Shown: one piece after another, positions 7,437 to 40,770 of the stretch
Layout of the letters: each line of letters begins with the position of its first letter
Position numbering within the stretch: the stretch's first letter is position 1
NCBI GenBank assembly: GCA_021432655.1
Contig: MU271396.1
Location: 32,102-74,473 of the forward strand
Reading direction: 5' to 3'
From: Atractiella rhizophila
Taxonomy: Eukaryota
Length of the DNA stretch: 42,372 nt
Notes under the pieces: generated by a model
Told to the model about the DNA's origin: nothing
Seen by the model: the letters and a program-made list of their open reading frames with translations, nothing else
Database searches by the model: none
Translations under genes and position numbers: made by a program

Positions 7437-7704
7437 TTAATTGGGAGCGGCTTCCGAACAGTGTCCTACCCAATTCCTCAGCACAATTCAGCAGAAATGA
7501 TAAAAGTGAAAGGTGTACGGGCAAGCAACTTAGCAAGGACAGTCAACACCATTTTTTCTGGGATGACATGTTGTTCTCCATACAGCTCGATGATGTAGCC
7601 TCCCTCTGACTTTCCCTGCAAAGCGACGTCGGATGTGTCACTGAAAGGAGAAGATGGAAACTAGCCACAAATCTCCACGGGTTGCTGTGCAAGGAGCCTT
7701 CCAT
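7437..7704 (-). CDS. Microprotein family copy A (54 aa): MEGSLHSNPWRFV|GKSEGGYIIELYGEQHVIPEKMVLTVLAKLLA|RHCSEAAPN
   Basis: Exons 7704-7666, 7615-7519 (97 nt), 7465-7437. Introns of 50 nt (GC-AG) and 53 nt (GT-AG). TATAAAA at 7798-7792. Homologous to the six other copies. Confidence 0.75.
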
Positions 7705-9148
7705 CAACTTGAGAGTTCAGGCGTAATCGGTAGATTTTGAAGGAGTAGCTAAGGGTCTTGAAGAGAGTAAGAGGGCCATCTCTGCAGCTCCTTTTATATG
7801 CTCATCCTCCTTCGTCTGGTAGTTGAAGAATCAGTTGACTTTCAACTGTCAAGCAAAAGTTCTCTAAGCTCCGGTGTTTCTCCGTTCAAGTTTGCTCAAA
7901 GAAAGTCGTATCAACTTTTCTCGTCCCCCTGTCGCCATTGTCTGGATGCTTTGCTCCACTTTTCCCCCGTTCACACCATGCCCGACCCCGATTGAATTGA
8001 GCAAAGCTGCACCAGCGCCACACCAGGTAGAGATTGTTCAAACATTCATGTGAACGCTCGTTCAAACGCTCAATTCCTGTCCCCTGTGCATTTCGACGGG
8101 ATACCGCGCACGCACGAGAGGAACGAGGAAACAGCGATCGTTCGGGAAGGGACACATTGAATTGTTTGAAACATACTCAACACTGTGTTTGCAGGCAGGG
8201 ACGAAGTGTACAGGCTTTGCCATGTCAAGAATTGTCCCGACTGTCTTGTCAATTGTAGGAATGGTGATCAACGTCCTGAAAAAAACGAGATGATCCATAT
8301 CATTGTACGCTTGCTCGGACGTATTCGTGGCTTCTTCCGAGTCTCGTTCTGCAATGATCCTTAATGTTATTGTCGCGTCTCTGAATACTAGTCTTGCGGT
8401 GTTCAATCCAATGCGAGCACCAGCCGACCCACGAATTCCAACCAACTTCGTCAATCTGGGTCCAGAATGTTATTCTGCTTGCGCACCTCCCACGATCGTA
8501 GGCCTATCGTCAAGCATACCCTTATTGGCCGCAGTTTGAGGACGAAATCGATATCCTTCGGCACCAAATGGATTGCAGTTTCGACTGGTCGACACCTATC
8601 GGTACGGTCACGACAGTCTGTGGCCGGGTCCTAGAACTTAGATTATCCATCACTGGCTTGTGATTGAGCTATCATTCATATCGTTGTTTACTGTCTGCTT
8701 CCCGTCGTCGCTTTCGCTCTGTCCTCCCACACTGGTGGCTGATCGAGATCTAAGACATGAAGTTGGCTCCAAATTGCCCCCAATGATGGTGGATAGCAAT
8801 GGCAGATCGAGTTGCGATATTGAAAATGGAATGTGTTGTGAGCCAGTTAACTTGGATGTTGTTCTCTCTACTAGTAGGGCCAATTTGCCACATCCAAGTC
8901 TGAGAACTCTTTGGTCCGTACCATCTACTGGCTACTTGCAATTTGGATGTCATCTAGTTATGTATTATGGATGATCTTGGATGATCCTGCCTCTGCGAGT
9001 GTTTCAGAATGAGTCGCCACCATGACCCACCGTGCACGCGGACTCGGAGCCACCGCGAGGCTTCCCTCTTAACCTCTGAACCGTTCCTACTGCTTGCTAA
9101 TCTCAACCGAAATTTTCCATCAATCTACCTCTTGGACGGGTTAAAAGG

Positions 9149-11029
9149 ATGTCAAGCTTTCTTCGCAGACGCTCTTCCTCCCAATCCTACAGCGTCAGCA
9201 TCAAACATGATCCCTTTGCCTACCCGCCGTCATCCGGGCCATCATCTTCCTTCTCTCCATCGACAGAACACATCCTCCCCATCGCCTCCGAGTACGAAAA
9301 GACGCCGACCTCACCTTCCTTTCCCTCGGCAGGCACTTCGTCGTCCGACACACCTTCCAGAGTCCGCCTCCTCCTCCTGCCAGCCACTTGGCTCGTCCTC
9401 GCCCTCGGAGTAGCCGCTGCTCACCACTTCTTCTACTCCTGGGCTGCCGATCAGCCTGTTGTTGATGTGCCGCTCGAACAGAGATGGCTGCTATCCATTG
9501 GTAACGCGGCGGCTTTCGTCTATGCCATTTGTATAGCAGAAGCTACCAAGATAGGACTAACCAAGCTGCTGTGGTTCGTTCACCTTCCTCATACATCGAC
9601 ATTGGAAGAAGGAGGCTGATTGATGGATGAAGGGAATCGGCGAGGACTGAATATAAAACTCTAGAAGACCACTCAACTGCCTTCTCCCTCGAAGCCTCCA
9701 TCCTTTCCATGCTCAACGGCGCACTATGGAAGTCCGGCAGATTGCTTCTCCTCCTCGCTCTCCTCCTCCGTCTCACCTCCATTCCCGGAATCTTCGTTGT
9801 CCCCACACTAACGGCGCAACTAGTGTCTACAAACACCACCTCGACTTGTTCCGTCCCCATCTTCCAAGCGGGAGAGATAAAACAGGAGGTGGACGAGATA
9901 GAGTACACCTGGACCCTCTCCGGCGTCACAGCCTATGCGCAACCCTCCTCCCTGCTCTCCTCCCTCTCCTCCCGAGTACTCGCATCCTCTTCTCCTCTCC
10001 TCACTCTCCCCTCCTCCTGCCCAGGCTCTTCCTCCGTCTCCAACTGCACCTTCTCAACCACCGTTGATGCGTTGACGTACCAGTGCAGCGGAGAGACGTT
10101 CCAAGGGTACGAATACACCGGACAAACTGTCCTTTATCACGCGGTGGACGCGCCAGAATACAAGGAGGCAGATACGGCTGCTGTGGCGCAGAACGACTGT
10201 TTGTCCATCCGCCTCCCAACCCAGAACGACGCGCTCAAATGTTGCCCTTACCACGCATCCTTCGAGGTCTCAGTGACACAAGAAGGGGCGGAGAGGAATT
10301 CAGTAACTCTTTTGTCTGAGCCGAAGGTTGGGGATAAGTTATGGTCTTATGGAAGCGAGTATGACGTACAGGTGTCGGGGGATGGTGTCGATGGGTTCTT
10401 GACGGATGCCCATTTGTGGGCGGTAAAGGATTCGGTTATGAGGTTGTTGTTGGGGAAAGTCCAAGTGGATTTTGACCAGAAAGTTCCGTCCGTCAATGAG
10501 ACGAGGATCGATGTGACACCGAACAAGGATATGTATGATGCGAGGAATATCGAGAAACCTACGAGCGTAGACGGGCTGTTGAAAACTTTACCAGAGTTGA
10601 TGAACAACATCAGCTGTGCGTTTCCGCCTCTTTCCTTTAAGATGCCGACACTGATTGTGGTTGACAGTGAGCCTGCTCAGTCTGACGCCCTCGACAACAT
10701 CCACATCCTGTATCTCACACCCATACGCCTTAACATACGTTTACACCCCTCTCGTGCTCATCTCCGCCTACGCTCTCGGCCTCCTACTCTCCCTCCTCGC
10801 CGTGCTCCTTGGGACAAAACTGTTTACGCTCCACTTCCCAGCGCAGAACACATTCAAAGATTTCGTGCTTGCCAGCCGGAATTCAGGACTGGATGTACTG
10901 GTGGATGGGAGGGAGGGGACATGGAAGGTTAGGGAGGAAGCGGCGAAGGAGAAGTTGAGGTTGGGAGCCATGAAGGATGGAAGGTTGGCTTTTGGGACGA
11001 AGGAGGAGTTAGTGGATTCGCGTGGTTAG
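9149..11029 (+). CDS. Uncharacterised fungal membrane protein (multi-TM N-terminus, Cys/Thr-rich luminal part, C-terminal TM)
   Basis: Three ORFs joined by introns 9574-9632 and 10616-10667 that keep the frame. Motif AHHFFY...QRW...GNAAAF...W...PTL and a C-terminal YALG TM segment resemble a widespread fungal family of unknown function. Confidence 0.8.
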
Positions 11030-11832
11030 ATACTTCGTTTTTCTCCCACTCGTTCCTCATCTGAGCATTCATTTTGTGTTATCTTATACTTGTCGTAGAT
11101 CCCAGGATTGTGATATATCACGTGGACCACTGTTAGCATTGTTTGCAGAGAATGCTCGCCGTCAACCTTAGATAAGCACAACAGATAGGAATGATCGGGA
11201 GCACGTTCTGCTGCAGATCAACAAAAGGAAGAAACGTTCTTGGGCACTTCTCCACTTGTTCACCGTGTCATAACTTCGTCGAGGAAGGGAGATTGACTGT
11301 TACCAACTAACTTTCCCCCAGTTTCCCCAGAGATTGGCTGAAAGTATTGTCACGCACACATAGGGAGAACTCGCCGGCTCCTCTCGATTCTCTTTCGAAC
11401 CGACATCTCGCCTGGTACCCACCGGCACCGTACCTGTCTTGCCGGCCCACTTATAGATGGTGCTAGCAGCCAATTCTGCCCCTCCAACGTTGTGTCGCCA
11501 TAAAATCAATTATTGACTCTCTGGCGTCAACAATTTATCGAGGTACAGTACATATAGAGCGCTTGGAGTTGTGAGGCTAGCCCATTCGTTGGCTCGAATC
11601 GATATCTCCTTTGGTTTCCATCAGGTTTACAGTCAAGACCAAGTTGGAAGACTTGCGTTTCCATTTGACGCAGTCTATCGCCGCGAAGTGGGAGGGCCTA
11701 GTCTAGCTCTCGTTAGGGAGCTTGGCAGTCAGCTCTAGGCAAGGCTATAAAAGCAGCGAGATTTCTTCTTCATCCACCATCAATCAAACGACATCCTCTG
11801 TTGAACGCCAAAACATCGAGCGAATCCGAAGA

Positions 11833-13314
11833 ATGCCAACTCTGCTGTCACTGCCGACAGAGCTGCTCCACGCAATCATATCCCAAGTCCTCCTCTTCCC
11901 AGAGACATGGCATATTGGCTCCTCCTCCCTCCTCCGTCCCTCTTTCGACACCCTCCTCTCCCTCTCAGTCGTGTCCAAATACCTCAGAGCGCTCTCCACG
12001 CCGTACATCTTCAAGTCGCTGATTCTCTCTCCGGACGCGTACGGCCTTCGAAGGAACCATTGCACCTACCTCGAACCGCTCCAAGAGACCTATAACGTCG
12101 CCATGGACCTTGTACAGCAGCTCAAGGTCGACATCGTCGTCGATCGCTTCGTCGCCAACAAGAAAAAATGGGCTGCTACCACGATGGAGAGGAAGATGGC
12201 ATCGATAGCGAAGGAGGGGCATGGGAGGAGAATGCCGATGCCCATCCCGATGCAGGAGGTTCATTCGTTCGGGAGGCATGCGAGCGTGCTGGAGGCACCG
12301 GATAGGGAGGAGATGGAATATCTAACGAGATGCTTGGACGATCTCGCCTCGTCATCTGGGAGGAAGTTGAAGGATCTGAAGATCTCCGTCAAGAACTATC
12401 GATGTCGACTACACCCTTCTTTTCCACAGTATTTTGGCCTTGCCGTGCGCAGATTGGAGCGGTTCCGATTCATCGAGAGCTTGGAATTGAACTTACCCGC
12501 TGCGCTCAGGGAAGAAGCGGGAGGGATCCTCTTGGCCTTAAAAGGGAATCTGAAGGAGCTCAAACTGGCAATTGGCAGCGAAGCCACCTTGCCAGTGCTA
12601 TCCAAGATGGACAAGCTTCGGAAACTCGACCTCCTCCTCGCTTCTGACGTCCAACCTTCCTCTTCCTCGACATTTCAACACTTAGAAGAAACAATGCAAG
12701 ACTTCAAAGCGCTTGAAGACCTTCACATCCATTCCGAGGACGCACCCATGCCCTACTCCGGAGCGCGAACCTCCAGCAGTTCCGATGACGAGGGACTGCC
12801 CTTCCTGTTAGATTTTGAGATTCTGCGGGTTGTTCTCGAGAAGTCACGGACAACACTTCGGGTCTTGACGATTGAAGAATGCGTCCTCGTTTTTCCTCTC
12901 TCCGCTGATCCAGACGTCGACAATTCCAGCACATCGATCGATCCCATCCGCTTCACTAAGCTCCAAGTTCTGGAACTCCACCTGGGAGCCAACATTGTAT
13001 TCTCTCCTCCTCCCCCGCCTTCTTTTTCCCCTTCCATCTACCACCATCTCCTCTGCGCCTTCGCCATCGCCCCTCTCCAGACTCTCAAGATCTGTAGCAA
13101 CACGACAGAGAGTGATATGGCCATCTGGGAACCTCTGCGGATGGACGCCGAAGGAGGAGGAAACGGACGGTGGAAGGCTTTGAGGGAGATAAGGGCGAGG
13201 AAGGGAGTGGTAGAGGAGTTAGAAGAGGGAGGAGGGAGGGAAGGAAGGAGAGGTAGAGAGTGGAGAGCCGCTTGTGGAGTCGAACTCGGGGTGGGCAAGT
13301 TTACTGTTTGGTGA
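11833..13314 (+). CDS. F-box-like / LRR-like protein, single exon
   Basis: ATG at 11833. N-terminal LLSLPTELLHAII F-box-like motif, then Leu-rich LxxLxL repeats (LKELKL, LRKLDL, LEDLHI, LRVLTI, LQVLEL, LQTLKI). TATAAAA at ~11746. Confidence 0.7.
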   Translation: MPTLLSLPTELLHAIISQVLLFPETWHIGSSSLLRPSFDTLLSLSVVSKYLRALSTPYIFKSLILSPDAYGLRRNHCTYLEPLQETYNVAMDLVQQLKVDIVVDRFVANKKKWAATTMERKMASIAKEGHGRRMPMPIPMQEVHSFGRHASVLEAPDREEMEYLTRCLDDLASSSGRKLKDLKISVKNYRCRLHPSFPQYFGLAVRRLERFRFIESLELNLPAALREEAGGILLALKGNLKELKLAIGSEATLPVLSKMDKLRKLDLLLASDVQPSSSSTFQHLEETMQDFKALEDLHIHSEDAPMPYSGARTSSSSDDEGLPFLLDFEILRVVLEKSRTTLRVLTIEECVLVFPLSADPDVDNSSTSIDPIRFTKLQVLELHLGANIVFSPPPPPSFSPSIYHHLLCAFAIAPLQTLKICSNTTESDMAIWEPLRMDAEGGGNGRWKALREIRARKGVVEELEEGGGREGRRGREWRAACGVELGVGKFTVW

Positions 13315-18754: not shown

Positions 18755-19004
18755 TTAAATCGCACCTGGTTCCATCGTTCGTTGTCTGAGCAGAAGAGAT
18801 GGGCGAAAGAACACACGGGCTAGCAATCCAGCAAGAACCGTCAACATCATTTCTGCGGGGAGAAGGTATTCCACTCCATTCATTTCGATTATGTACCCCC
18901 CCTCTGATTTTGTCTACAAAATGCAGCATTAATAGTGAGTGAGAGAAAGCTGATAGGAACCATACAACGATTGTCCACTTGCTCGGGTCTGTGGATGCTT
19001 CCAT
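18755..19004 (-). CDS. Microprotein family copy B (48 aa): MEASTDPSKWTIV|TKSEGGYIIEMNGVEYLLPAEMMLTVLAGLLA|RAI
   Basis: Exons 19004-18966, 18913-18817 (97 nt), 18765-18755. GT-AG introns of 52 and 51 nt. TATAAAA at 19086-19080. Confidence 0.85.
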
Positions 19005-22000
19005 GCTACTTGACAGTCCTAGTGCAATGAGGCTGAGTATCTGTGAGGTTTGACGACAATGGATGGGAATAGTCTTGGCTTTTATAGAGCTTATGATTCT
19101 GGTAGAGCTTGCAGATACTTTCATCGCTCACTTGATCGCTCATCCATGGTTTGGGCAAACGGCCTAGAAGTCCGAAAATCAAAGACGAGGGGAACGAGAA
19201 GAACGAGGGCTATAGTGTGGTTACCAAAGGGAACGAAAAGGTCTGTCAACCAGATCGACATCAATCATCCTATATCGCGACGGTGCCGGCACTCCATCTT
19301 TCCAGCACTATTACATTGAAGATCGTTTCGGTCCGTCGCTCCCGATTAATGTCGACTAACACTCCTGGCCTTAGTTCGATCCATCCCTATCTCGTGGCCA
19401 TCGTAATCGAAGGAACAAGACAATTTCGGACAGAGCAAGGTCATCAAAATTAAAAGTTAGCACTCTGAAGTTGCGGTGATTGTCAGGCTTTCCTCCGAGG
19501 ACAGAAGTTACAGCACAGGCGGTTGAACAGAAGGTCAGTTTCATCAAGTCTTTCACTACGTAAGTCTCTTCATCATACCCATTGCATCTGATCTGCCCAG
19601 GATTCAACATACTGCAGCTTTCATTGGAGGAGAATAAAGCAGGCAAATGTAAGTCCTTTGGTGAGTCAACGTCGAGTATTCTTCCCCTTACAAGCCCAAT
19701 CGAGCGACGTGGAGCGCGATTGAACCAGATTGAGCCACCGCACAGACCAGGAGCCAGACGGACTAACAGACAAAGTGCTATCGATACTGAGCTTGAATAC
19801 AGGCAGCAGTCCCCGCGGCTCCGTGGCCCCGTACCTTGACTTGACGGGGACTTCGCTGGTCGCACCTCATACACTCAGACAGCAATGAACAATGAGTTCA
19901 AACTGACTCCATGAAGATGTTGACGATACCCGCTTAACCCAGAATTTGCGCCTGGAATAGAGAATGAGACGAATATGGATTGCGTGTCGCTTTTCATTAG
20001 CTTTTAGGCATACCCTCATTGCAGGGTGTCAATGTTCACAACTTCTCGTAGTATTGCTCGGGGAGTTTCCAAGACGTGCTCCCTTGCAACCGCACACCTT
20101 CAACCCCGTTTCCAACTAGTAACCTACACGGGGACAAGTGTTCGCGGAGAGGGGAGGGGGTACATTGGTCCACTACCAAACTCCGACCCGGACTCTCCGT
20201 CTTGAAGCCTCTCTCGACACTCTCGACACCAAACTCAATCAGGGAGAGCCAAACTCACTCGACAATCGCACCTTATTCCCATGTGATCACCTTGTCCCTT
20301 CACTCGAGACACTCCACCGGTGACCCGCGAATCCGCCAATCTTACACTTTATCTGTCTTACACAGCCACTCCCCAGTACGACCATGGTCACGGGGGTCAC
20401 AGGCTTTGCCCGGTTGTTGGAATATTGAACAGCTTCAAGTTAGCCGCCTACCCTTGACCGTAACCACCGAGGGACTTGCACCTCCTCACCAGTTCCTTTA
20501 TCGCAGGCTGAGGAAGTATAGGAACGCGATGTAGAGAATCGTTGTTGATCCTAAAGTCTAAATACCGAAAAATCTCCGCTAAAGGCGACAAGATTCAAGT
20601 ATTCTGCAATGCAAAAGGATCTTGGGCATTTAAAGACCATCTAGTTCAACGTCATTCATCTCAAGAGGCGACTACAAGCTCCTTCATGCTTTGGGTGAAC
20701 TTGCATCCCCATTACTCGAGTAAGCTTACTAAGTCTCAGAGATGGTTTGTGTGCCTTTGTAGCATGGATAAGTTCTTAATCTTCTCGGGTTCGGCGGGAT
20801 CGCAAGCAAAGCGATGATCAACGCGCCGAACGACGGTATAGTATACACGATCCGAATTTACATACGCACTGTGAACGTGCTGATGCCCTTGGACTTCGTC
20901 CACATTCCCCAGGCCAAGCGGGAGCCGCTACAATCAACGGGTGTCAGTATGAAGAGGATCTGGCTGAAGGAATCAAGTGCTGTTTTTCAGAGAGCGGGGA
21001 ACCTATTTATGGCCCCGAGACACCACGTAGCAGTTACACCGTGAGTATTCCCCTACATGTAGTAATGATAATGGTCTCTAAGCACAAAGGATAATTCTTC
21101 AAAATATCCATACCTTTCCTGACTTGGGCAGATGGGGTTGAATCAGACAGGCTTTGTTATTATTAATTCTGCAACACAATCCACGGTCTAATGACCTGAA
21201 ACGAAATTTGATTTGATATTTAATCATTTAGCTATAGTTTGTCAATTCCAGTTTTGCTGTTTCGCAGCTCAGGCGTCTCCGAAAACCGCGTTGTCAGAAG
21301 TCTTAGAAAGCTGGAAGCTTCAAGCTTCAGGTTTATGGTTAAGAGGAAGAAGTTGGCATGGACATGTCCGGATTCACCGACAGGAATGTCGTGAACGGGA
21401 GAAAAAGCACATGTCATCGGCAGAGAAAAAGTAGATGGGGCACACCGTCCCTAATTCGTTTAGTGCTCATTATTTAATCATCAATCAATAGATATTACTT
21501 GGCAGCAACGTGACGGCGTGCCCATTCTAGGATCGACGTGTTCGTCAGGTGCCGTCTTTCCAGAATTTTACACAGCAGAGCAAGTCGACGCGTTACACGA
21601 TCTATTGGACGAGAATTGAGCCGTACAATGTCATTTCTTCGGAGAGGTTAACGTCGTGCCGGATCAATACCGGTTGATGTGACGATATAGAGTAGGCCGG
21701 TTCGAATCAATTCCATGGGCAGGCTCTCGTTCGAGCGACCGGCTTGGGCTGGAGGTACCAAAACCGGATTATTAAATGAAATGCCTCCTCGAGAGTACAT
21801 CGACGACGGTTGCCATTATCTGGGGGTCAAAGCGCTGACTAATGTTATGAATGGAGTATAGAAAAGCGTCAAGGTTATAGCGAAATAAAGGCAGAGGGGA
21901 CTAAGTTTCTCATTGATAATGGAGTGCATGCTGTCCTGTTGGAATTCAAATACTCAAACTGTTGAAAACAGGTGCGATTACTTTGCTTGTACGACAACGA

Positions 22001-26182: not shown

Positions 26183-27717
26183 TGGTCATCCATCTCGCCT
26201 AGTCGGCAGTCGGGAAGAGAGTGTGGAAGAGAGAACAGTCATGATCACACGTTGAGACATTGAAGCAATAGCCCAGCTAAGAGGAGAGGATGCCAAACTC
26301 TAAACAAGTACCTCCGAAGGTGGAGTGTCGTCCCTGTCAATGAGGATGGAGGGACGGCGGAGTTGAGGGCGGATGCGAAAGAGAACAAAGCAAAAGATGG
26401 AAAATGAGAGCCCAATTCGGCAAGATAACGGCTGGAACGGCTCCTGTTGGAACTTGGAGGCATGCCAGATAAGCATGCGTGGAGCCTGTGCACGACAAGA
26501 GAGATGTTTGCAGGTCGGTTGTTAGAATAAAGGAAGGTGTCACCTCATCAAGTGAAGGGAGACTTCTCAGACTCTTTTGCGCAGGCCTGTTAGCCTGTTG
26601 CGAGGGGATGATATCCTCCTTTCAGATGTCCCACACACCGCTACTGTTTCATATACCGCCCATGTCGACCCAACGGTGACTTCAAATCAACCTCCTCCAG
26701 CTGTAATTGATTGGTTGATGGGCAGGAGATAATAGTATTTGGTGGGCGGATAAAGTCCCTTCCATTGTCCCTTACTGTGTTCCATTGTTCCTTGCTGTAT
26801 TCAATTGTCCCTTGCTGTTCCTTGTGGCTTTTGCTTTTCGGATCTGTTCCTGCGTGCGACCATGCTACCATCTTTACAAATGTCGATGCGTTGTGTTGTG
26901 GGGAGAGATAGACGTTGAGTGTTGAGTGTTGATATGATACGCTGATGGGCTACTTGGATACTCTTATTGATCTATTGAATTTCAACGAGGTTTTCGTGCG
27001 TTATTTCTTCCAGCGTGTGAGCATGAAAAAGGGCTTCTGTTACCTCCGTATTTCCACGCAATCCATCGGCTTTGAACCTGTTGTCTCTTCACGGATCGTG
27101 AGAAGCAGATTGAATTGGTACATTGATTTGAACGGTTTGAACGTCTGTGGCGTTGCAGGGGGATGAGTGAGGGAAGTTGTGTGAGGCTCGTACAAAGTTT
27201 GAAAATTTGACCCAACACAGATCGGAAGCCCCGAAAAGCTCCAACCTCTGTCAACGACAACCCTCAAATTCTTTCTCAGGTCTTTCTCAAAAGGTCAAGC
27301 GCTTCAATTTCGCGCGCACCCGATCTGATTGCTATCTTTGCGCACCTGTCAAACTGAGTTACAAAGATTGAATTGACTAGTGATCTGTCGTGGTCGACAA
27401 TTGCCATTAATATGGATATTGTCATTGACAAATTCAAACTAGCGGGCCAAGGACCCGCCCAAGATTCAATTTATTTCACCACATGTTCTGTGTACCAGCG
27501 AGCTTCGTGTCTGTGACGAGCGTGAATGACAATTGAGATGAGATCCGATCAGTTTGGGCACGCTACCTCACACAAAAGCAACCATCCGTCCTTCAAGCAA
27601 AATATGGCTAGTCGGCTCGCTGAGGTATAAAGTGAAGCCTGGATGAAGAGTTTACTTCTTCTCGTCCACCTCACTTCTCTCACTTTTCACCTATTCTTTC
27701 TGAAAAGAACTCTCACA

Positions 27718-27967
27718 ATGGAGGCGTCTAGTAATCCTAGTCTGTGGTGCTTTGTTGTTAGTCTTCCTCGCATTTATTTCAGGTGCAAGTCTAATTCGTC
27801 CCATGCAGGAAAAAACTGCAAACGGCTACATCATCGAAGTAGACGGCGAGCGTCACTTTTTCACTGAAGACATGGTGCTCACTGTTCTTGCCGGATTGCT
27901 TGGTCGTGTGTTCTTTCTTCCTTCTTGATAGAGAAGAAGCTGAGGCGTTGTACTAGGAGCGATTTAA
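27718..27967 (+). CDS. Microprotein family copy C (48 aa): MEASSNPSLWCFV|EKTANGYIIEVDGERHFFTEDMVLTVLAGLLG|RAI
   Basis: Exons 27718-27756, 27809-27905 (97 nt), 27957-27967. GT-AG introns of 52 and 51 nt with CTAAT / GCTGAG branch-like motifs. TATAAAG from 27626. Confidence 0.87.
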
Positions 27968-29784
27968 AGCGCATCCCAGTAGCTTTACCTCGAGAAACCA
28001 GTCGTCATTTCCATTGGCAGCCCTCTCGAATGCCCTACTTTAAGCTTAGCCACCCCTTCTTTCCTGGCTGACGTGGCACATGAGAGATGGTGCAACTGGC
28101 TTTACCTGGAGATGCATGTCGTTGCTTGTCCCAACCCTCTCGATTGGCCTGTTTCTAGCTTACCCACCTTCTTCAAAAAGCAACGGTTGTTTTAGTCTAT
28201 ATAACGGAGAAAATTCGTTCGAAATTGCATTTAATTGTTCATTTTTACATTGCGGTATGGAGGTTATATGAGGTACGACATGGATGAAGTGGCAGCCACC
28301 CCTTCCACTATTTCTCGGTACCTAGTTGACATACGGTGACAAGGAACTACTGAACTTTCAAGCTGGACAAACACTTGCGTCTTCACACCTAGAGTGCTTC
28401 AACCAGTAATGAGCACATTTCAGCTCTGGCTCCTCCACTCAATCCCCACAGTAAAGCAGACCGTTCAATGGTTGACCGGTCTCAGAACCGTGAAGAGGCA
28501 AAGATGCAGACCAAGACGAATGGATTGGTCACGCCAAGAGCAAGAAAGGAAGCAAATTAAACTCTCACACGTGTCCACTTCATGTTAATCCTAAAATAAG
28601 AACATTAACTTTTGCCATTACTCTTTAATACTCATTTCCAATCGAACATTTAGCCAGTTTGTTTAAGGACGGAGGGTTAGGCCCGAAACTCGAACCTTCG
28701 AAGGTGGGAGCCATCCTTTGATCTAGTCCTCCGTCCAACCGACCGTGTCTCCTCAAGTCATGCCTTCGAAAGGTCGACACCACGGAGATGCAGCGGCTTT
28801 CGGGTGCCTTAAGGCGGTCGGTTAGGTTGCCGTAGCGGAACCGGAAGTGGACCATCCATGAGAGGGGGGTCACTGGTACGGGGTAAGGGATAGAAAAAGG
28901 AGACGGAGGAGATTCGGAGGGAGGTGGATGTGGGATTATCGGATGGGGTAGGTCTCTATTTGTGTAGCGTAGTTTGGGCAAGAGTACACAGTACATGGGG
29001 AGTTTCAAATGGTTGTCGTATCCGCATTTGGCAGAAAGGAACGGGAAGCCCAAATGTTGCAAGCGAAAGTCCGCTCCACATTGCCTCGGTGCAAGTGGGA
29101 AAGTGACACTAAACGCCCAAGGGTAGATGACTATCCATAACTTCAATATACTCGCATGTCTTCCTTCAGGAATTCCGTTTTTCTAGGCAGAAAGGCGCTG
29201 GTTCAGTTGCCTAGGCAACTTTAGTGCAAGAATTCATTCAGCGAAGTAGCTACAACGGATTCAAATAGAACAGTGACAGCGGTAATCGCGGAAGTGAATG
29301 TTAACCTTTATCCAATTGACAAGCTGCTAAGAAGCTCCCCTCGATGGTTCACGTGTCAACATTTCGAATTGGATTTATCTCGAATGTAACATCAACGGTT
29401 GTACCTTTACTGGTGCTTACCTTCCTCAGATGCAAATTTCTAAGATTGCAGTTGTCCGGAGAGCTGAAGTTTGGTCTTGCCATGTGACAGAAATGTGGTA
29501 GACATCAATTACTTGGCTGAGTAATTTTGATACACACAGGTCTACCTTCTTGCCCCTTTCTCTCGGGTGTGACAATTGGTTCCTCGACCTAGTTTGCATA
29601 TTTCTTCTATCTCCTTCGGGTCGCAGGGCAGGTGCATAAATGACTGAATTGGCCTTGGGCAAGACGTTTTTTTGAAAAATCGCGTGTTACTGAGGAGCAG
29701 ACATAAAAGGAAGGGTCACATTCCTTCAGAACCCAGAACTCTTCTATATCTCACTGCCTATCCATTACTCCTGCAATCTCTAAC

Positions 29785-30037
29785 ATGGAAGCATCCTGGA
29801 ACGCTAGCCAGCGCAGAATTGTCGTAAGCCACCCAACCTTATCTTTGAGCTCCGTTTGAATCCTCTTCATAGGAAAAAGTGGAAGGCGGATACATAGTTG
29901 AAGTCGATGGGAAGCGAACCTTTTTCCCAGAAGAAGTGGTTTTGACCATTCTTTCTGATTTGCTTGCTCGTCCGTTGTTTCGCTTTTTATCCCTTCCTGA
30001 CTGATTTGGCCGGTGGATGGAAGAAGGAGCGAGATAA
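29785..30037 (+). CDS. Microprotein family copy D (~48 aa): MEASWNASQRRIV|EKVEGGYIVEVDGKRTFFPEEVVLTILSDLLA|RAR
   Basis: Exons 29785-29823, 29873-29969 (97 nt), 30027-30037 (NAGNAG acceptor, +1 codon possible). Introns of 49 and 57 nt. CATAAAAG from 29702. Confidence 0.83.
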
Positions 30038-31295
30038 AGGTTCTTCTCTGTTAAAGGGTACGAAAATGAGCTTAAAATACATCACGCGTCGCGATTATCA
30101 GTTTCCATTCTGTGAATAATGACTACTGAACGAAAATGTATCACCTGATCTTAAGTGAGACTAGATGACGAAGAAGGGTCTCAAAGGAGGGGGTCTAAAA
30201 ATGCGGGGAGGCTCATAAGTGGAGAAAGAAGGTAAGGGAATAATAGAACACACCCCCTTTGAATGCTTTAGAATAGAAAGGTATGACCAGCTCGAAAAGA
30301 AGCGATGGGAGTGTTGGGAAGCACAGTGCTTCCATCAGTAAAAGCTGAAATGAATGATATTAACTTGTGGTCACCACACACATAAATGCATTGAGGCGAA
30401 TCTAACAGGCAAGCTCTACAGGATGGTAGTTGCGTATGAGGGAATAAAGGAGGTCGCGGAATCATGACGGGTGTAGTGACTCATGACTCATGACAACAAA
30501 CAGAAATGCTATTGAGATAATAATGCATTTGTATCACAGAAATCCGAAGTAAAGTGAACAAAACGCGGTTGCAACTGCGCGTGCCTCAGCCTTGTATCAT
30601 TTGCGGTAAGATAGTACATGCAAAGATGTCCCGATCATTGAAATTAAACGCTCATTCTCGCTTGTTGACCGGTTTCGCTCGTCCTTTACGTTCGTTGAGA
30701 ACTGGCGTATTGATTGTTTTGTTGACGATGAGATTGAGAAGGCAACGCACGGGCGAGGAGCGGAACAACGCTGCAATCTTGTCAAGTAATTTTTTAGAAG
30801 CTAACATTGGCGCGCCAATGGTTCATTATTCCGAATGACGGCGCACAGTTTTGACATTGGACGATAATTCAAAACTTTATTTCTCGTTCACCTCGTACAC
30901 ACTTCTGCACGCTCCTTCACCAAGTTTCGTCTGGACTTCGCAAGAAACAAGAAGCGATATGACTCGACTTCATATGCATTCGTTCATTTGGCATTGTTTG
31001 TGAGAAACGACTCGTTCCTCCCGTTCAAGAGAGTCGTGCGCCTCGTTCTTCTCGTGCTTACGCTCTTACATGCGGAACTGACAATAGCAATGAGATACTC
31101 GAACTTCAAAGATTTCATCGGCTCCGTAAGCATTACTTTCCGGAGCCCAGCCTCCAGGTGGGAAGACAAGCCCTGAGATGCGCTGATTTCGTCTGCTACC
31201 ACGACACGGGAGTTGGATATAAAAGCGCAGGCAACCTGGTTCCACTCTCCACAAAATTCTGACCTACTAATTGCTGACTGAAGGAGACTTTCAAC

Positions 31296-31548
31296 ATGGA
31301 ACCAGCTAGCCAGTGGAGATTTGTCGTAAGCGCTGACCGCCTCCGTCCAGCCATCCGTATTTATGCCCTTTCATAGGATAAGACGGAAGGGGGCTATATA
31401 CTTGAAGTAAACGAGGAGCTATACTTTGTCCAGGAAGACGTCATGCGTGGAGTTCTCTTTGCGCTCCTGGACCGTGCGTTTTCTTCTTCTTTGATAAAAT
31501 AAACTCAAGAACTGGGTAGAGAGCGGTTTAGAAGTCCTTTTCAGGTGA
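31296..31548 (+). CDS. Microprotein family copy E (~51 aa): MEPASQWRFV|DKTEGGYILEVNEELYFVQEDVMRGVLFALLD|QSGLEVLFR
   Basis: Exons 31296-31325, 31377-31473 (97 nt), 31520-31548 (last exon uncertain). GTAAGC and GTGCGT donors. TATAAAAG from 31218. Confidence 0.78.
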
Positions 31549-33110: not shown

Positions 33111-34493
33111 TAGGGGATTGTAAGCGACATAGCAACCGAGACGATTGTCCTAAACATCTATCTTGAAGGAGCGTAGGAGTGCGGCGGAGTGGAAGGGCGA
33201 CGCCGACGAAAAGAACAAAGGAGACTGGAGATCCGCTAATAACAGCTCCAATCGGAACTTGGAGATAAACATGCGTGGAAGTGTCTGAGCATGAGCACGA
33301 GGAGATGTCTGCAGGTTGGTGTTGGAATGAAATGAAAGCGTATGCCTGTGTTGGCTGCCACTCATATCCGAAGTCACTCCACAGGAGGACTGAGGAAAAT
33401 GTACTCTCCGACGTGTTGAAGCTTTAGGGAGAATGCCCCTCTTCAACGAGGATAAGCGACAAAGACAAATCCTTTTAGGAGCGGCGTTGGGAGTTGGAAC
33501 CCAGACTATCCACCGCTGACTCAGCAGGCCCAAGCTACGTAAGCACAATCCACGCCGCAGCAAGGAGAAAAAAGGGAAGGAGACAGAAGCCAGGTAACAC
33601 TGAGGCCAATGTAGAGTCCGATGGATGGCTGTGAGTTCTCGAAAGCGAATCGTATCTGCGTTTTTGTTGGGAATCCAAGGCTGTCGGTTGAATTGCTGGT
33701 ATAGGCTTGCGTTCGTGCGTTCCTTTCTCTGTAGACATCGGCTGCGAAGAATTGCCAGAGCTGGAACGTTGTCTTCGTATTTCCATACCGCCCAGCAGTG
33801 CAGTGATCGCATTTGTGTTTCATGTTAGTTCGCTTGGGGCAGGTAGAGGGTCATAATTGAGACATTTTCAAGGTTCCATTGCCAGTCAAGCTGAATGATG
33901 AACGAAGACGAAACTTGTTCCAAAATACAACAATTCAGCTATATCACGGTTACTACAACAGGTCGCCCGATGAATGACAAGTCCTGAGCTTCAATGTCGA
34001 GATTTTGAAATGTAGACACTTTCATTTTCGGAAAGACATTGGCAGGAACTCTTTTAGTAGGAAGGTGTTGGATGTGCTCTGCCTTCTCCTGCAGTATCTA
34101 TTACTCCAGAGAATTCAATCTATTAGGAAAGGAGCATGTCGGAGAGCCTGCGATGCTGCGGCAAGGAAATGGATACTTGGGGGTACACATTCAAACCTGA
34201 CCTTCCAACGCTGGCAGGTTGAGGCGAGGCGCCATTGACTGGTTTAGGTCATCAATTCCCTCGTTCACCTTGTTCAGTAGCGTTGACGCGGAGGAAGTAT
34301 GTCGGACGCGCGAGTGGGATGAGCAATCCCAACCCCAACCCGTCATAGTGCTGCGAATTCCTTCGTTAGCGTAATACCCCATTAATTGAGAGACGCCAAG
34401 TCACCTACCAAACAATATTTCGATAAAAGCCCCACTTTGACTCTCTTATTGACCACACAATCAATCCTATCCCATTATCCATTAGTCCCTCTA

Positions 34494-34738
34494 ATGGACC
34501 CATCCTCCAACACTAACCACTGGAGATACATTGTAGGTCACCCTCGACTTTCCTTGAGCCATCTGATTCGTCGTTTTGTAGGAACAAACCGAGAGCGGAT
34601 TCAAAATCGAAATCGACGGGTTGGAACACGTTTTGCCTGAAGAAGTTATTTTGGAGGTCGCTATCAGGTTGTTCGCCGGTGGGTTCTCTCTTATCTCTTT
34701 GATGATAGACGCTGAAGATGTGATTAGCTGCCACTTGA
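34494..34738 (+). CDS. Microprotein family copy F (48 aa): MDPSSNTNHWRYI|EQTESGFKIEIDGLEHVLPEEVILEVAIRLFA|AAT
   Basis: Exons 34494-34532, 34582-34678 (97 nt), 34728-34738. GT-AG introns of 49 and 49 nt. GATAAAAG from 34422. Confidence 0.85.
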
Positions 34739-36799
34739 ATCTTCCTCAGTGTACTATACCATCATCCGTGATTCAACGGCTCCTGTTGAACGTCGAGAAC
34801 AAGCTACGATCTATGTAGCCCCGAATCTCAGCTTGCATTTTTCCTACCTGTATTTGTTTCGAAATGTACTCAGCTCTGTCTCGTGTCGCAATGTATCATA
34901 TGAAGCCCAACTAGTCGAATGAACGCGGATGAAGCAGAGGCAACGTCTTCACATTGTTTATCCTTAGCTCTAGTATACGCTTCGGGGCCAGGAATTTAAG
35001 ACCTACGCTGCAGCGAGGTAGCGGCTAACAATGGACTGTCAACCTTTACAGAGCAAGCGATGAAAGTACAGAAGGGTTAAATAATCGTCGTCTGTTTTCC
35101 CTCCAGCTCAAATACGGTGAGTAAATCCCATAACAAACACAACAACACGCGTATTGCAACATGATCCTCTTCGATCCCTGTCGAGCCTTGATCCGTTTGA
35201 GCGTAGCAGAAAGGTTCTATTAAGATTGAAAGTGAGCTCTGACGCAGCAAGGCTCGTAGGTTCGTACGGATCACGATGCGAACTGTGAGTAATATTATGG
35301 GAGAACTTAGAAAAATTGTCTTCGGGTCCCGCTCAACTGAACTTTTACCTCTGAACTTCAAGGGGTTGCAGAGCTAGGACGGAAGCGCACAGATTGTGAG
35401 AGATTGTGGACCTGAGGCGGAGGCAGCGGATCAAAAATAGGAAGCCAAACATGACGGCAAGGGACGGCCTGGAGACCAATTTGGCATGTTTCAATTGCGC
35501 AGATGTTGCAACTTCGCAATGGCAAATATCATGATTGCTAGCTTGCGCTTCGTCCCATTCGTTCGTTTAATCATCGCCGAACGCCGTCGTGCCATCTCCA
35601 GCATTAAGGCTTGTTAATAAAGCGCGATGAAGCGATGAAGCAGGTGGCGAGCGGCCCTAGAACCTCTCTAATTATATGAGGCAATGGAAAGGAGTGATTG
35701 GTAGATTTTATCGGAGGTGGAGGAGATAAGGGGGCTGAAGGTGCAGGAGGATGGAAGGAACTCGTGCTTTACCTTTGATGGGGATAAGCATCTCTTCCAA
35801 CGTAAAGACTGGAGGAGGAAAGGAGTGACTGGGAAAGTCGTTGAAGGGCGAAGGGAACTTGCAAGCAATGTTTCAAGCCAAAAGGAATCCTCCGATTCAA
35901 TCAAACCACTGGCCGTGCAATCAATGATAGTGTGGCGGCGCATTGGAATGCGGATGCCGAAGAACAAATGAGATGGAAAGGGAGTGCTCAGCAAGAGAGA
36001 TCACGGCTTCATTTGGCCCTTGGAGGAAAGTCAGATCGCCTGAGCGGCAGTAGATGTCTGCAGGTTGGCCACTGGAATGAAAGTGTGCTCTCAAGCTTGA
36101 ACTACATGCTGGCAGGTGAAAGACACTCTGATCTAAGTACGAGGGCTGCGAAGTGGGACTGCAAGGTGTGAGAAACAATTAGATGATGGTCTCACACTTG
36201 CAAGGAGCTCGCTTTTTCACTAAGGAAGCTGAGTGATAAGAAAAACGCAAGCAGAAAGAAAGAGATTCAAGCTTAGACCGAATGTAATGAAAGTGGAAGG
36301 CATATATGCCCCCATCGTCCTATCACGAATGGGCAATTGTCTTTTAAGCGGCCTCCTTTTCACCTCTACCAAATCCATCCACGTAGTTGGATGAGGACGA
36401 GTCAGAACCGAACCTATACCAAGATCAAAGAGAAATCAATTCAACCGAGATCCAAGGAGTAAGAGCTACACACAGGCACGAAAGGGGCAGCAGGAGACAG
36501 GCGAGCAGCGTCAGAGAAAGTCGAGAGCTGTAAAGTCTCGGAAATGGAAGCCTATATTTAAAGAGGGGCGGTTTGCTGGCTGGTTCTCAACGCTCCACGC
36601 CCTAAACTCTGGCGAAGGGTTTGGGTTCGTAAATACCTGGGTATGCTTTGATTACGTCTGCGCGAAGAATCAAGAGACGTTGAGGGCTAATTACCTTCGT
36701 ATTTCCACTCACCCCAGCATCTTTGAACTCTGCCCTTTGAGTATTTACAATTCTTGTTTCATGTTTGAGTTGCAGAAGCTCATCAATGTCCCGTTCTCC

Positions 36800-37620
36800 C
36801 TCATAGTGACTAATACGCTAGCAGGTGGTTCCTTCTAAATTCACCGCCGACTAGTGTGGAAGTCGCCGAGAGTGTTCAGTGCCCGCTTGTTAGATTATTG
36901 CTGAAGATTGTGTTGAAGGAGTCCATTTTGCACAACGTGAGGCATTTAAAGTTAAAACTAAGGTGAGAGCCAGAAAAGGATGTTACTGCTTAGTCTGCTA
37001 AGTTCCTTTCAGTTCCTTTAAATGTTACTTAGCGGTCACTAATCATCACCCCCTACCGAGGTAAGATCCTCCGTTTACTCATTATCCCCTAACCACAACA
37101 ACTACGGTGTCATACCATTGAAAAAAACAGCACCACCAATTCTCGCTCTCACTCCCAAAATAGGGACGGAGTGGAAGCAAATGATCACTGATCGAGCAGG
37201 GAGGGCAAACTAGTTTCACAAGATGCTTCGTCAAATGGACAGCTGCAAGGAATAACGATGCACGACCTACATTCGAGGGAAGCGTGTGGGCTGTAGAGGA
37301 GATAAGGCCTTTTTACCTACATTATCATCCCAAGCAGCGAACAGTTGCTGAAGCGGTCCACTGTTGCGACCACAACCACCTAGACTTGAGACTTGGTCAG
37401 TTTAGTCCCTCTTTGGAAAGTACACATGTATAGCTGCATCCGTCATTTATCCCTTGAAAAAGCCCAAACCCTTAGGAGGTTTGGTAACTAAGTGGGGTGA
37501 ACAGCCTTAGTATTGTGGCCAGAGGGGCCGCTGCCCATCACCACCTCCTTCCTCCCGAGCTTCCAAACCTTGGGACTCCGCCCAATGGGGACGCGCCGCT
37601 CTGGCAAGACTACCAACTCC
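36800..37620 (+). pseudogene. Decayed intronless ORF of unknown origin, copy 1 (homologous to 39635-40420)
   Basis: Shares a 61-nt identical block and the peptides IITPYRGKI, LTPKIG, MLR and LP(P/L)ELPNL...LW with copy 2. Differences in those peptides are mostly synonymous. Contains stops and frameshifts. Confidence 0.6.
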
Positions 37621-39634
37621 TTGACGTTCGAACTTATGATAACGAACCAAGGGACCGGGGCCTTTTACCACTGAAGCTACCTTGTTGCAGTTTAAAGCAG
37701 GTTCGGTTGACTAGACAAAAGAGCTAGCGTAGGAGCGCCTTTGTCTACCTCGACTTTTCAGTCCCGCTCTTCAAAACTATGAGTTCACGATACGTCAATA
37801 CATCGAAACAGTTTCACCACGGTTCACCTTTGTTTTGCAGTACTCCCAGTGAAGTGAGGAAAGGAGCTGGGTAGCCTTGCAACTTTTACAGCTCTGGCAC
37901 TTGCAGATGTAGGTACTCGGAGATAAGGAAGGTGCGCTCCGTTTATATCGTCAGTAGTGAAGTTTTCACGGGTTTCGACGGTGACCCGCTGTACACCTTT
38001 TATGCACCCCTTAACTAGTAGTTGTGGAGGTAAGAGAACTAGGAAGCGCGTCTGCGCACGGGTTCGTATTCGTCTTCCTTCTTGCCTGCTTGCGTTTAGG
38101 AAGCGCCCTTAAACACCTCACCTCCTAACTCTTAGTCTACAGTTTGGCCGAGGGGAAGGTTTCATCTGACTCGTAGATAAAGGCTCTTAAATGTCACACG
38201 TTAAGCGAGACTGCAGCGAACGAGACGGAGGACAACGGGGCACGCACGAACACACGACATGGAGAATGAATAACACTGTTTCCTTACACGAATTGCTGTC
38301 ATCGGGATCCCAAAGTTCGTCTCACAGAGAGCGAGATGCTCCCACACCAAGGCTCAGCGGATACTCACACCGGTTCAAACTTTTGATCGGAGGTCAGACC
38401 TCTGTAGTTGCTGCCGAGTAGCTAGACTCCAAGGTTCAAGGTTAACTCGGAGAGAAGCCGCTCGAGAAGAAAAGGTAGAGGGGAAAGTAAGAAGGCATAG
38501 ACGGCGGTGTGCTAGTAACTGCCGTACTTTTCGCCAAACCAACTTCGTGAGGAAACCGGTCTTGTAACGAACGTTCAAGGGAAGCGGGAAGCTGCTGTAA
38601 AGGGTAGAAGGGCGACCTTCCCTAGCGGACCGAGACGCCCACCCAGGCGTGAGTGTGGGAGTAGGGTTAGTGTAGTTTTTTAGCTTAAGGAAGGTAGGAG
38701 GAGGTGACAGTGGAGGGAGGTAGAGGAGGGGGAGGCGATTTGAAATGGCTAGCGAGAAAAAGGAAACAAGGTATACTAATCTCTCCAAAGCTCCTGTAAG
38801 CGGCGAATGGAATAGCGAAGTAGTTATGACCTCTACCACTCTCCGCAAGTCGCCACTGACTTGTTGCTCACCCTGCTTCGCGGCGTTCAATTGAAATGGA
38901 TGCTAAACGTTCATTAGTATAATAAATGGTAAGGGAGTCAACGTACGTGAAGGCAGCATCAAGCCGCTGTGCAAGTTGAAATGGCATTTTCAAGTCGATT
39001 TCGTCCAGAAGCTTCTATTAAAGGGTTTCAAGAGAGCATGAAAAGTTGCAAGGGAAGGAGAAGGTCCATACCTGGGCGCCAAAGCTCGGCACGTCGCAAC
39101 CCTTACAAAGCGGAAGTAAGAGTTGGAACTTTTGGAAAGGATGGTGAGACTAACAAACCTAGGCGAAGCGAGTGTCGAGTTCCGAACTGTCACATCTCCT
39201 AGTACAACATTTGTACACGACAACGGTAACCACGTAAGCAAATACCTAAAAGTTCAATAAGTAACAGAAACTAAACTTTTTCCTTTTGTCAGCTCCGCCA
39301 TGAAATCTTAAGCTCAAAGACAGGAAAGATAGTGAGATATTTACGAATGGACAGGTCACAACAGGCGATTGAGAATGTTGTGTTGATGACTGACAGTGCT
39401 ATGCAGAACTATAAGGCCAGGGACTTCGAATCTTGTCCGTCTTCCTGTTTATCACACCTGTGCCAAGGAAGACGAATTAAGTGCAAGCAAATTGATCAAC
39501 ACGAAGTATACTAGGAGGGTTACGCTATTCTCTGTTTCGACGAACCTAATTCTTTGAGTGTAGATCTTTTGACTGTTCGACTTTAAGTTCCGTTGTATTA
39601 AACCTGTAACAAAGAGCTTCGAGTTGTTCTCGTC

Positions 39635-40420
39635 TCATAATGATTACTGTGCTAGCAGGTGGTTCCTTCTAAATTCACCGCCGACTAGTGTGGAAGTCGC
39701 CGAGAGTGTTCGGTGACCGCTGTAGCTGTTTAGATTATTGCTGAAGGTTTAGATTATTGCTGAAGGTATTATTGCTGAAGGTTTAGATTATTGCTGAAGG
39801 TTTAGATTATTGCTGAAGGTTATGTTGCAGAAGTCCGTTTTGCACGACGTGAGGCAACTACAGCTAAAACATAGGCGAGCGCCAAAAAAGGATGCAGTAC
39901 TGCTTAGCCTGCCAAGTTCCTTTCCACACCCTTTGAACGTTGCTTAGAGGTCAGGGATCATCACCCCATACCGAGGTAAGATAATCCGATTACTAATTAC
40001 CCTATCCTAACCAACTACAGGTCCATGCCCATGCCCTTCACAATGACAGCGAAAATAATGACATTCTCTGGTGTCTTACCCCAAAGATAGGTAAAGGCCG
40101 CTCCATTGAACCGGCAGTCAAAGCAAACTTCCAGGATGCTTCGTTATTTGTTTCAGTAGGTATAGGGCATCTACAAAGCACACAGTCTATGAAGGAGGCT
40201 TCGCTCCGACGGGGTGGACTTCTGTGTCGCTCAGAGCACAGTTGGACGGTTACAACCTGTAGAGCTTCGGGTGGTAAGGATTAGAGGTGAGACGAAATAC
40301 AGTCGCATTTAACGTGAGGTTTATAACGGGCTAAGAATCATCTAACTTAGCGGGTAGCCTTTACCCCTGGAACTCCCTAACTTGTCACGGTGTAGCTGCG
40401 CTCTGGGATTCTTGAAAGCT
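39635..40420 (+). pseudogene. Decayed intronless ORF of unknown origin, copy 2
   Basis: Homologous to copy 1. For example CTT ACC CCA AAG ATA GGT (40075-40092) and CTC ACT CCC AAA ATA GGG (37148-37165) both encode LTPKIG. Confidence 0.6.
39729..39819. repeat. 19-bp minisatellite (TTTAGATTATTGCTGAAGG) x5, third unit shortened
   Basis: Units at 39729, 39748, 39767 (15 nt), 39782 and 39801. A single unit occurs at the homologous position of copy 1 (~36890-36906). Confidence 0.95.
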
Positions 40421-40621
40421 ATCGTAGAGCCGCCTTTTATTAGGTCGACCTTCCAGTTCAAAACTAGGGTTTGCAGTCTTGACTGTTGAAAGCCCGGAGG
40501 TTAACCGTCCACACCCTTGACACAGTTTCGGCCTGATTAAACCTTTGTTGTGTAGTAGTTCAGTGGCAGTGTTCGAGTGAGTTAGACCGACTTGCAACTC
40601 TCGCAAGTCTTACAACTCTTG

Positions 40622-40646
40622 NNNNNNNNNNNNNNNNNNNNNNNNN
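40622..40646. other. Assembly gap (25 N)
   Basis: Run of n characters. Confidence 1.
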
Positions 40647-40770
40647 AATCAAAATTGAAATTTACGGAGTGCAACACGTTTTACCTGAGGAAGTTGTGTT
40701 AGAAGTCGTTATTAGATTGTTCGCCCGTGACTTGTGAGAGCCGCTGAAGGTGTGATCAGCCGCCACTTAA
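40647..40770 (+). CDS. Microprotein family copy G, 5'-truncated by the gap: ...IKIEIYGVQHVLPEEVVLEVVIRLFA|PAT
   Basis: Exon 2 remnant 40647-40726, clearly closest to copy F. Intron 2 homologue is only 33 nt (40727-40759). Exon 3 CC GCC ACT TAA ends at 40770. Confidence 0.7.

Follow-up and report, generated by a model that had tools for sequence, protein, structure and literature searches.

The locus described here raises the question of whether a series of short, similar coding segments on both strands of a fungal contig represents a genuine family of microprotein genes and, if so, what its products might do. The segments lie in a stretch of 42,372 nucleotides from Atractiella rhizophila (GenBank assembly GCA_021432655.1, contig MU271396.1, positions 32,102 to 74,473 of the forward strand), which was analyzed at its full length and is referred to below as the window. 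We found seven microprotein copies in the window, designated A to G, of which six were complete and G was partial; A and B were located on the minus strand and C to G on the plus strand. It is very probable that these copies constitute a real protein-coding family. Our preferred reading of the whole system, to which we assign a probability of roughly 45%, is that the copies are independently promoted small genes, the products of which would be acidic intracellular mini-domains that bind other proteins, probably as homo- or hetero-oligomers, and would differ from paralog to paralog.

Gene models built from coordinates (Table 1) revealed one common architecture in the six complete copies. Exon 1 comprised 39 nt in five of them and 30 nt in copy E and was followed by a phase-0 intron of 49–52 nt; exon 2 measured exactly 97 nt in all six; and a phase-1 intron of 46–57 nt led to a last exon of 11 nt in copies B, C, D and F and of 29 nt in A and E. 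GT..AG ends were present in 11 of the 12 introns, the exception being intron 1 of copy A, which had a GC donor. The deposited protein P0001 was identical to the copy A model letter for letter and implied the same GC donor. A first-pass annotation made from the letters of this stretch had placed seven loci here, and we recovered all of them at those places nearly to the base, together with the shared layout and its fixed exon 2. Its description of the last exon as tiny does not fit the longer tail of E.

A profile hidden Markov model (HMM) of the exon-2 peptide was run against all six-frame open reading frames (ORFs) of the window with at least 12 residues. Seven matches were obtained, with E-values from 6.5e-21 (copy A) through 1.3e-20 (copy B) to 3.4e-14 (copy G), and the next match had an E-value of 0.19. 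The consensus proposed earlier needs correction, as only two exon-2 columns were invariant across all seven copies. When 1086 window ORFs were compared with each other by BLASTP (self-BLASTP), 30 pairs reached E ≤ 1e-3; 26 of them fell on the microprotein loci and four on an unrelated repeat, and no second gene was repeated beside the copies. Copy G had lost its 5' part to an assembly gap; since its putative second intron would span only 33 nt, this copy may be degenerate or decaying.

The substitution pattern was that of a coding sequence. Pairwise identity at the first, second and third codon positions was 0.60, 0.75 and 0.47 among the six complete copies, and the mean proportion of synonymous differences (pS) was 0.66, in comparison with 0.32 for nonsynonymous differences (pN), over the 21 pairs that include copy G. 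The ratio of nonsynonymous to synonymous substitution rates (dN/dS) ranged from 0.11 to 0.67 in 16 of the 21 pairs, and dS was saturated in the other five. The codon-position pattern and the excess of pS over pN indicate that purifying selection acts on a protein, which was the interpretation offered in the first-pass annotation. The contrast drawn there between heavily diverged introns and preserved exons was weak at the nucleotide level: identity within the family was 0.59–0.61 for introns and 0.63 for exon 2, whereas family introns compared with unrelated introns gave 0.51–0.52. It is the codon-position pattern that signals constraint. The conservation was limited to the three coding exons, where it followed codon positions, and the downstream flanks were unalignable. 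Because dS was at or near saturation, we regard most of the duplicates as old, and the notion of an expanding family is doubtful. Copies F and G were 79% identical in exon 2, and the flank after F (34895–34995) was 75% identical to that after G (40923–41023), at an offset of ~6.03–6.07 kb as for the genes themselves; this pair therefore looks like a younger segmental duplication and is the only one that looks younger.

Transcript evidence was obtained from contigs of one public run, X1, the kind of which is not on record, aligned at 90% likeness to positions 16000–35999. This run contained 0.34 of the sampled words; the aligned region covers the five copies B to F, and A and G lie outside it. 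X1 behaves as complementary DNA (cDNA), since its contigs skipped the GT..AG introns of two neighboring genes, Prp19 and HPP. Among the joints listed, at least one predicted junction was present in four of the five covered copies (C, D, E and F) and none in copy B. In particular, a contig joint from 27905 to 27957 in copy C had GT..AG ends and coincided exactly with intron 2, and the exon-2 acceptor at 27809 was also present. In copy F, the joint from 34532 to 34582, again GT..AG, corresponded exactly to intron 1, its shorter side being 97 letters long. A contig of copy D contained 16 letters equal to 29808–29823 joined directly to 29873, with intron 1 removed as predicted. For copy E, a contig left exon 2 at 31473, continued for 34 letters and then aligned over 31555–32212; by our reading, the 34 letters are a diverged version of the last exon, resembling 31520–31554. 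The cDNA-like junctions of C, D, E and F bore out the earlier view that these are real spliced genes. Downstream of copy C, we also observed a contig that lacked 51 nt at 28076–28128, within an imperfect direct repeat; the ends were CA..TT, and two other letters stood between them. We read this as an insertion or deletion by which the run differs from the assembly and not as an intron.

A TATA-like box preceded each complete copy (Table 1). The heptamer ATAAAAG, located 71 to 94 nt before the ATG, was the sole 7-mer common to at least five of the six upstream regions, and random sets of six 400-nt windows shared a mean of 0.2 such 7-mers. When shared promoter motifs were sought upstream of the six complete copies, none passed except this heptamer. 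The box aside, the 5' leaders and 3' flanks were at background identity (0.49–0.54 versus 0.47–0.48 for random sequence). We read the boxes, from their sequence and position, as the putative own promoter of each copy. Additionally, GACAAT, a possible shared cis element, was present at −190 to −238 upstream of four of the six copies (A, C, D and E), although the k-mer control showed this to be no more than chance would give.

The exon-2 profile was searched with HMMER against 1.84 billion representative proteins, and 14 proteins were retrieved at E ≤ 1e-3, 11 of which were A. rhizophila entries named 'hypothetical protein'. These 11 relatives sit on three contigs of 74,473, 63,157 and 45,359 nt: five are models of the window copies A, B, C, E and F on the 74,473-nt contig, five further ones lie on the 63,157-nt contig, which also has an entry identical to copy E, and one lies on the 45,359-nt contig. 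Copy D had no deposited model among the HMMER matches. P0008 was 77% identical to D and P0009 was 74% identical to A, and the rest showed ~40–60% identity to the window copies. In total, at least 13 distinct members are known, seven in the window and at least six on the two other A. rhizophila contigs, and the databases searched yielded the family from this species alone. The remaining matches, P0005 (Zychaea mexicana), P0013 (Homalodisca vitripennis) and P0014 (unnamed), were partial multi-stretch matches to tandem-repeat proteins of unrelated organisms and were rejected as spurious. A word-index search of proteins, in which the family profile was compared with 3212 candidates, gave seven proteins at E ≤ 0.01, every one of them from A. 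rhizophila. A scan of JGI metagenomes with patterns from four sequences gave 197 pattern matches, none of which was confirmed by tblastn.

The deposited models disagree on where the genes start, which first exon they use and how they continue at the 3' end. Copy B corresponded to the C-terminal 48 residues of P0003, which adds an N-terminal extension; copy E was deposited as the partial protein P0006, on two contigs; and P0007 matched the first 45 residues of copy F and then had a different 3' end. The N-terminal extensions were unrelated to each other and conservation began at the same methionine in all members, which supports the short ORF. As five of the seven window copies had already been deposited as hypothetical proteins, gene callers did not miss the family, contrary to what the first-pass annotation had expected. 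The sequences are therefore not new, and the titles and abstract openings returned by our literature searches contained no paper on the family or on small proteins of A. rhizophila; within that material and the databases searched, we found no description of the sequences as a family, no characterized relative and no function. The family is a new one within the lineage-restricted, amplified small-protein genes of fungi, where such orphan families are common. One of the A. rhizophila entries outside the window, P0012 (362 residues), contained the family domain at 157–187 between OGG1-like N- and C-terminal fragments (OGG_N, E 3.5e-4, outside the family domain); probably two genes were merged in error in this model, or the microgene lies within a decayed gene.

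The six complete products comprised 48–54 residues and were acidic, with isoelectric points (pI) of 4.2–6.2 and net charges of −1.2 to −6.5. Their N-termini began with M-E/D-x-S followed by polar residues, the first 9–15 residues being polar or acidic. Inspection and the hydropathy pattern revealed no signal peptide in the products, and their termini (...RAI, ...RAR, ...AAT, ...APN and ...LFR) contained no CAAX box. No cysteine pattern was present, the sole near-C-terminal Cys (copy A) being 8 residues from the end; on these three points the translations agreed with what had been noted before. When nine family proteins were compared with Pfam-A at E ≤ 1, none reached a gathering score and five of the nine matched no family; the sub-threshold matches were to S1_2 (11.8 bits versus a cut-off of 21.8), DUF561 and DUF5608. 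A profile search of PDB sequences gave nothing at E ≤ 0.001 (best E 0.63, ribosomal protein S1), and the ESM Atlas gave no usable look-alike for P0001 or P0010. A WW domain, considered for the Trp, the GGY and the Pro, was rejected: there was no Pfam hit, and the second Trp was absent.

AlphaFold2 predicted the same E-E-E-H topology for P0001 (copy A) and P0010, which are 42% identical: three antiparallel strands followed by a helix of 16–18 residues, as the first-pass annotation had guessed. The mean predicted local distance difference test score (pLDDT) was 80.8 for P0001 and 80.2 for P0010, with 90–94 in the core; both runs shared one 10-sequence alignment and are not independent. The conserved positions were structural ones: alternating hydrophobic residues, glycines at the turns (in the EGG-Y-I and G motifs) and the proline that precedes the helix. 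Variation between paralogs fell on the surface and in the tails at both termini. In the predicted sheet, conserved hydrophobic positions occurred on both faces, and the helix was mostly hydrophobic, which we read as a surface that would need a partner. A homodimer prediction for P0001 scored 0.02 against a mark of 0.32; it was made without an alignment and speaks neither for nor against binding.

Comparison of the models with known and predicted structures gave weak resemblances. Foldseek gave no match at E ≤ 0.001 against PDB and BFVD, its weak top rows being SH3-like integrase C-terminal domains, S1 fragments and a 20-residue stretch of Dnf1. The best structural neighbor of both models was PUR repeat III of Pur-alpha (PDB 5fgo and 8chw; top chain 5fgo_A), with a Z-score of 3.6 (rmsd 3.9 Å, 46 residues aligned) for the first model and 3.7 (rmsd 3.8 Å, 49 residues aligned) for the second, which is far below significance. 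FlaG followed with 3.5 and 3.4, COMM domains (PDB 6bp6, 8esd and 8f2u) with 3.2–3.5 and 2.7–3.3 at rmsd values of 4–6 Å, and PC4/Sub1 with 2.3–2.9; a chromodomain, which was also considered, did not appear among the weak neighbors listed. With no significant match in Pfam, PDB sequences, Foldseek or structure alignment, no characterized family corresponds to this one, in line with the earlier remark that it was not recognized.

PUR repeat III resembles the family in having a β-sheet followed by a C-terminal helix within ~60 residues, and it pairs with a second copy into a whole domain. In contrast, PUR repeats contain four strands and basic nucleic-acid-binding surfaces, whereas the family has three predicted strands and is acidic; the sequence identity was 6–13%, and there was no Pfam match. 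COMM domains likewise contain three strands and a C-terminal helix and are obligate dimers. However, they form the C-terminus of ~200-residue proteins found eukaryote-wide, whereas in the family the module is the whole protein and is confined to one species; no COMM match in Pfam was found among the nine family proteins. PUR repeat III, FlaG, COMM domains and PC4/Sub1 are all modules of a sheet plus a C-terminal helix that become complete only by pairing. These pairing-type neighbors of the models may serve as a lead on the mode of action and not as evidence of membership.

The surrounding sequence is fungal and has short introns (~50 nt). A Pfam scan of 109 ORF translations matched only the Ty3/gypsy element, which runs off the left end of the window, the HPP-family gene and the Prp19-type gene, and there was no Pfam match among the ORFs scanned at 26–42 kb. 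Four long open frames had no Pfam match at E ≤ 0.01; by eye, one of them showed an F-box-like start and another was proline-rich with low complexity. A repeated element of ~290 nt (36.8 kb and 39.6–39.9 kb) does not adjoin the microprotein genes, and its second copy contains a 19-nt tandem repeat at 39728–39833. Rfam and ARAGORN found nothing in the window; a snoRNA-host role was rejected on this result and on the ~50-nt length of the introns.

Table 1. Coordinates of the microprotein genes, their upstream boxes and other features of the window.
Feature	Position	Strand	Details
Copy A	7437..7704	minus	54 aa; exons 7666-7704 / 7519-7615 / 7437-7465; coordinate-built model
Copy B	18755..19004	minus	48 aa; exons 18966-19004 / 18817-18913 / 18755-18765; model
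Copy C	27718..27967	plus	48 aa; exons 27718-27756 / 27809-27905 / 27957-27967; model
Copy D	29785..30037	plus	48 aa; exons 29785-29823 / 29873-29969 / 30027-30037; model
Copy E	31296..31548	plus	51 aa; exons 31296-31325 (30 nt) / 31377-31473 / 31520-31548; model
Copy F	34494..34738	plus	48 aa; exons 34494-34532 / 34582-34678 / 34728-34738; model
Copy G (partial)	40648-40726, 40760-40770	plus	26 codons of exon 2; putative 33-nt intron 40727-40759; last exon 40760-40770
Assembly gap	40622-40646		25 N; removes 5' part of copy G
TATA box of A	7791..7798	minus	TATAAAAG, 94 nt upstream of ATG
TATA box of B	19079..19086	minus	82 nt upstream of ATG
TATA box of C	27626..27632	plus	TATAAAG, 92 nt upstream of ATG
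TATA-like box of D	29703..29709	plus	ATAAAAG, 82 nt upstream of ATG
TATA box of E	31218..31225	plus	78 nt upstream of ATG
TATA-like box of F	34423..34429	plus	ATAAAAG, 71 nt upstream of ATG
Putative alternative 860-nt intron of D	28948..29807	plus	donor GTAGGT after 28947; AG acceptor before 29808, inside exon 1
Ty3/gypsy retrotransposon	3-3637	minus	gag + zinc knuckle, aspartyl protease, RT, RNase H; long open frames
HPP-family membrane protein gene	~16.6-17.4 kb	minus	Pfam
Prp19-type gene (U-box + WD40)	~22.3-24.6 kb	plus	Pfam
Long open frame	4063-5262	plus	one of four (399-567 aa)
Long open frame	9631-10932	plus	one of four (399-567 aa)
Long open frame	11707-13314	plus	one of four (399-567 aa)
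Long open frame	13823-15526	minus	one of four (399-567 aa)
Repeated element, ~290 nt	36800-37087 and 39634-40002		blocks 82-92% identical

In the reading that we prefer, each small three-exon gene would be driven by its own TATA-like promoter. The mini-domains would bind their partners, probably as homo- or hetero-oligomers, through an exposed hydrophobic sheet face and the helix, and the paralogs would differ in surface and tails, hence in partner specificity. Several observations weigh against this reading. The transcript evidence comes from a single run, and some X1 contigs differed from the window sequence and may therefore derive from alleles or near-identical paralogs. The D contig joined an upstream piece ending at 28947 to the last 16 nt of exon 1, which looks like a canonical intron of 860 nt leading from an upstream exon into exon 1. 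A listed C contig joined exon 2 to 21 letters at 27535–27555 with non-canonical ends, contained 128 letters placed nowhere in 16000–35999 and lacked C exon 1; the deposited C model P0002 has a different first exon, 26945–26995, ~0.8 kb upstream. Contigs also extended 420 nt upstream of the F ATG (34071–34532) and, past E, over a further 660 nt. Simple small mRNAs are therefore accompanied, or replaced, by transcripts that start upstream or read through. The restriction to one species may be a sampling effect; few close relatives of A. rhizophila are known to have been sequenced. Exhaustive alignment of the models to 48,161 PDB representatives found no chain at Z ≥ 5, although in this comparison the best Z is typically 7–8 even for models that lack a clear match. 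Translation of the small frames is presumed. Nucleic-acid binding of the PUR/PC4 type is unlikely: PUR and PC4 bind via basic surfaces and the products are acidic, so that this function does not transfer. The basic nucleic-acid-binding surface of PUR repeats and Whirly-like half-domains is at odds with the pI and net charge of the six complete copies.

The transcript observations lend themselves to the alternative that the exons belong to longer transcripts (polycistronic-type or with alternative 5' exons) or to read-through ones, in which the peptide would be a by-product or come from a regulatory upstream ORF. The GT..AG joint into D exon 1, the C contig without its exon 1, the contigs reaching past the small genes before F and after E, and the unrelated upstream exons of deposited models all fit it, and polycistronic transcripts have been reported in mushroom-forming basidiomycetes (PMC4503453). 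Around the D joint, we observed that the upstream exon ends in ATGGG, the in-frame ATG of which would replace the normal start, and that an AG is likewise present in B, C and E where the alternative acceptor lies in D, within a conserved Ser codon. However, only the three coding exons are conserved, in a pattern that tracks codon position, and a TATA-like box stands at a fixed distance from each ATG. Self-BLASTP and the unalignable downstream flanks gave no second paralogous coding segment beside the copies, and hence no shared main ORF. In addition, unstranded short-read contigs merge overlapping neighboring transcripts, so contiguity alone proves little. We judge this alternative to be quite unlikely. 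An effector-like family for plant-root association, with inducible-type promoters, a gene-sparse, repeat-bearing setting and non-classical delivery, is unlikely too. Effector-like small-protein families of plant-associated fungi are similarly small, species-restricted and amplified, and they lie in gene-sparse regions with transposon remnants. All relatives found here come from one species, a root endophyte; every complete copy has its TATA-like box; 26–42 kb lacks a Pfam-recognizable gene among the ORFs scanned; and a Ty3/gypsy element and other repeats are nearby. The products, by contrast, begin with a polar or acidic segment and no hydrophobic signal sequence, have no cysteines able to form disulfides, and stem from old duplications under purifying selection, not from the rapid diversification typical of effectors; moreover, X1 contigs cover several copies in a run of unrecorded growth condition.

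Three other kinds of multicopy small gene deserve comparison. MSDIN-type precursors of Amanita and Galerina are encoded by multicopy, intron-bearing basidiomycete genes for peptides of ~35–50 residues without a signal peptide. The family shares these traits, and a conserved proline follows its most variable stretch, as might suit precursors of ribosomally synthesized and post-translationally modified peptides (RiPPs). Its variation, however, is spread over the surface of a predicted globular fold and does not form one hypervariable core between an invariant leader and follower, and no processing enzyme was found in the window: the 109 ORFs scanned contained no prolyl oligopeptidase (peptidase S9), methyltransferase, DUF3328 or P450 domain. 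A RiPP role is accordingly very improbable. Lipopeptide pheromone precursors of basidiomycetes are likewise small, multicopy and found on both strands, but the family has no C-terminal CAAX box, and the ORFs scanned included no STE3-type receptor domain. The first-pass annotation had floated a paralog-specific regulator, an inhibitor or a self/non-self factor as candidate roles. The copies might also act selfishly or in recognition, as toxin-antidote, meiotic-drive or non-self recognition factors do, for they are multicopy and lineage-restricted, occur on both strands and several contigs, and lie near transposon remnants. We give this idea very little weight, as no partner gene is repeated beside the copies, selection is purifying and not diversifying, and the products lack transmembrane or toxin-like features.

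The family opens no long-standing question, and nothing yet points to a new mechanism. It nevertheless shows, through the inconsistent starts, first exons and 3' ends of its deposited models, how annotation handles microproteins. Those restricted to one lineage have been little charted in fungal genomes, and this family offers an unusually clean and tractable test case, with at least 13 paralogs, fixed exon phases, junctions in cDNA-like contigs, clear coding constraint and a confidently predicted fold of ~50 residues that has no recognizable relative. A bolder form of the reading, which we consider improbable, is that the products are free-standing half-domains of an undescribed fold family that pair combinatorially among at least 13 co-expressed paralogs as a lineage-specific recognition or regulatory code. 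If it were true, a homo- and heterodimer code would operate in a root endophyte of the early-diverging Pucciniomycotina, and its targets could include self/non-self or host-related proteins.

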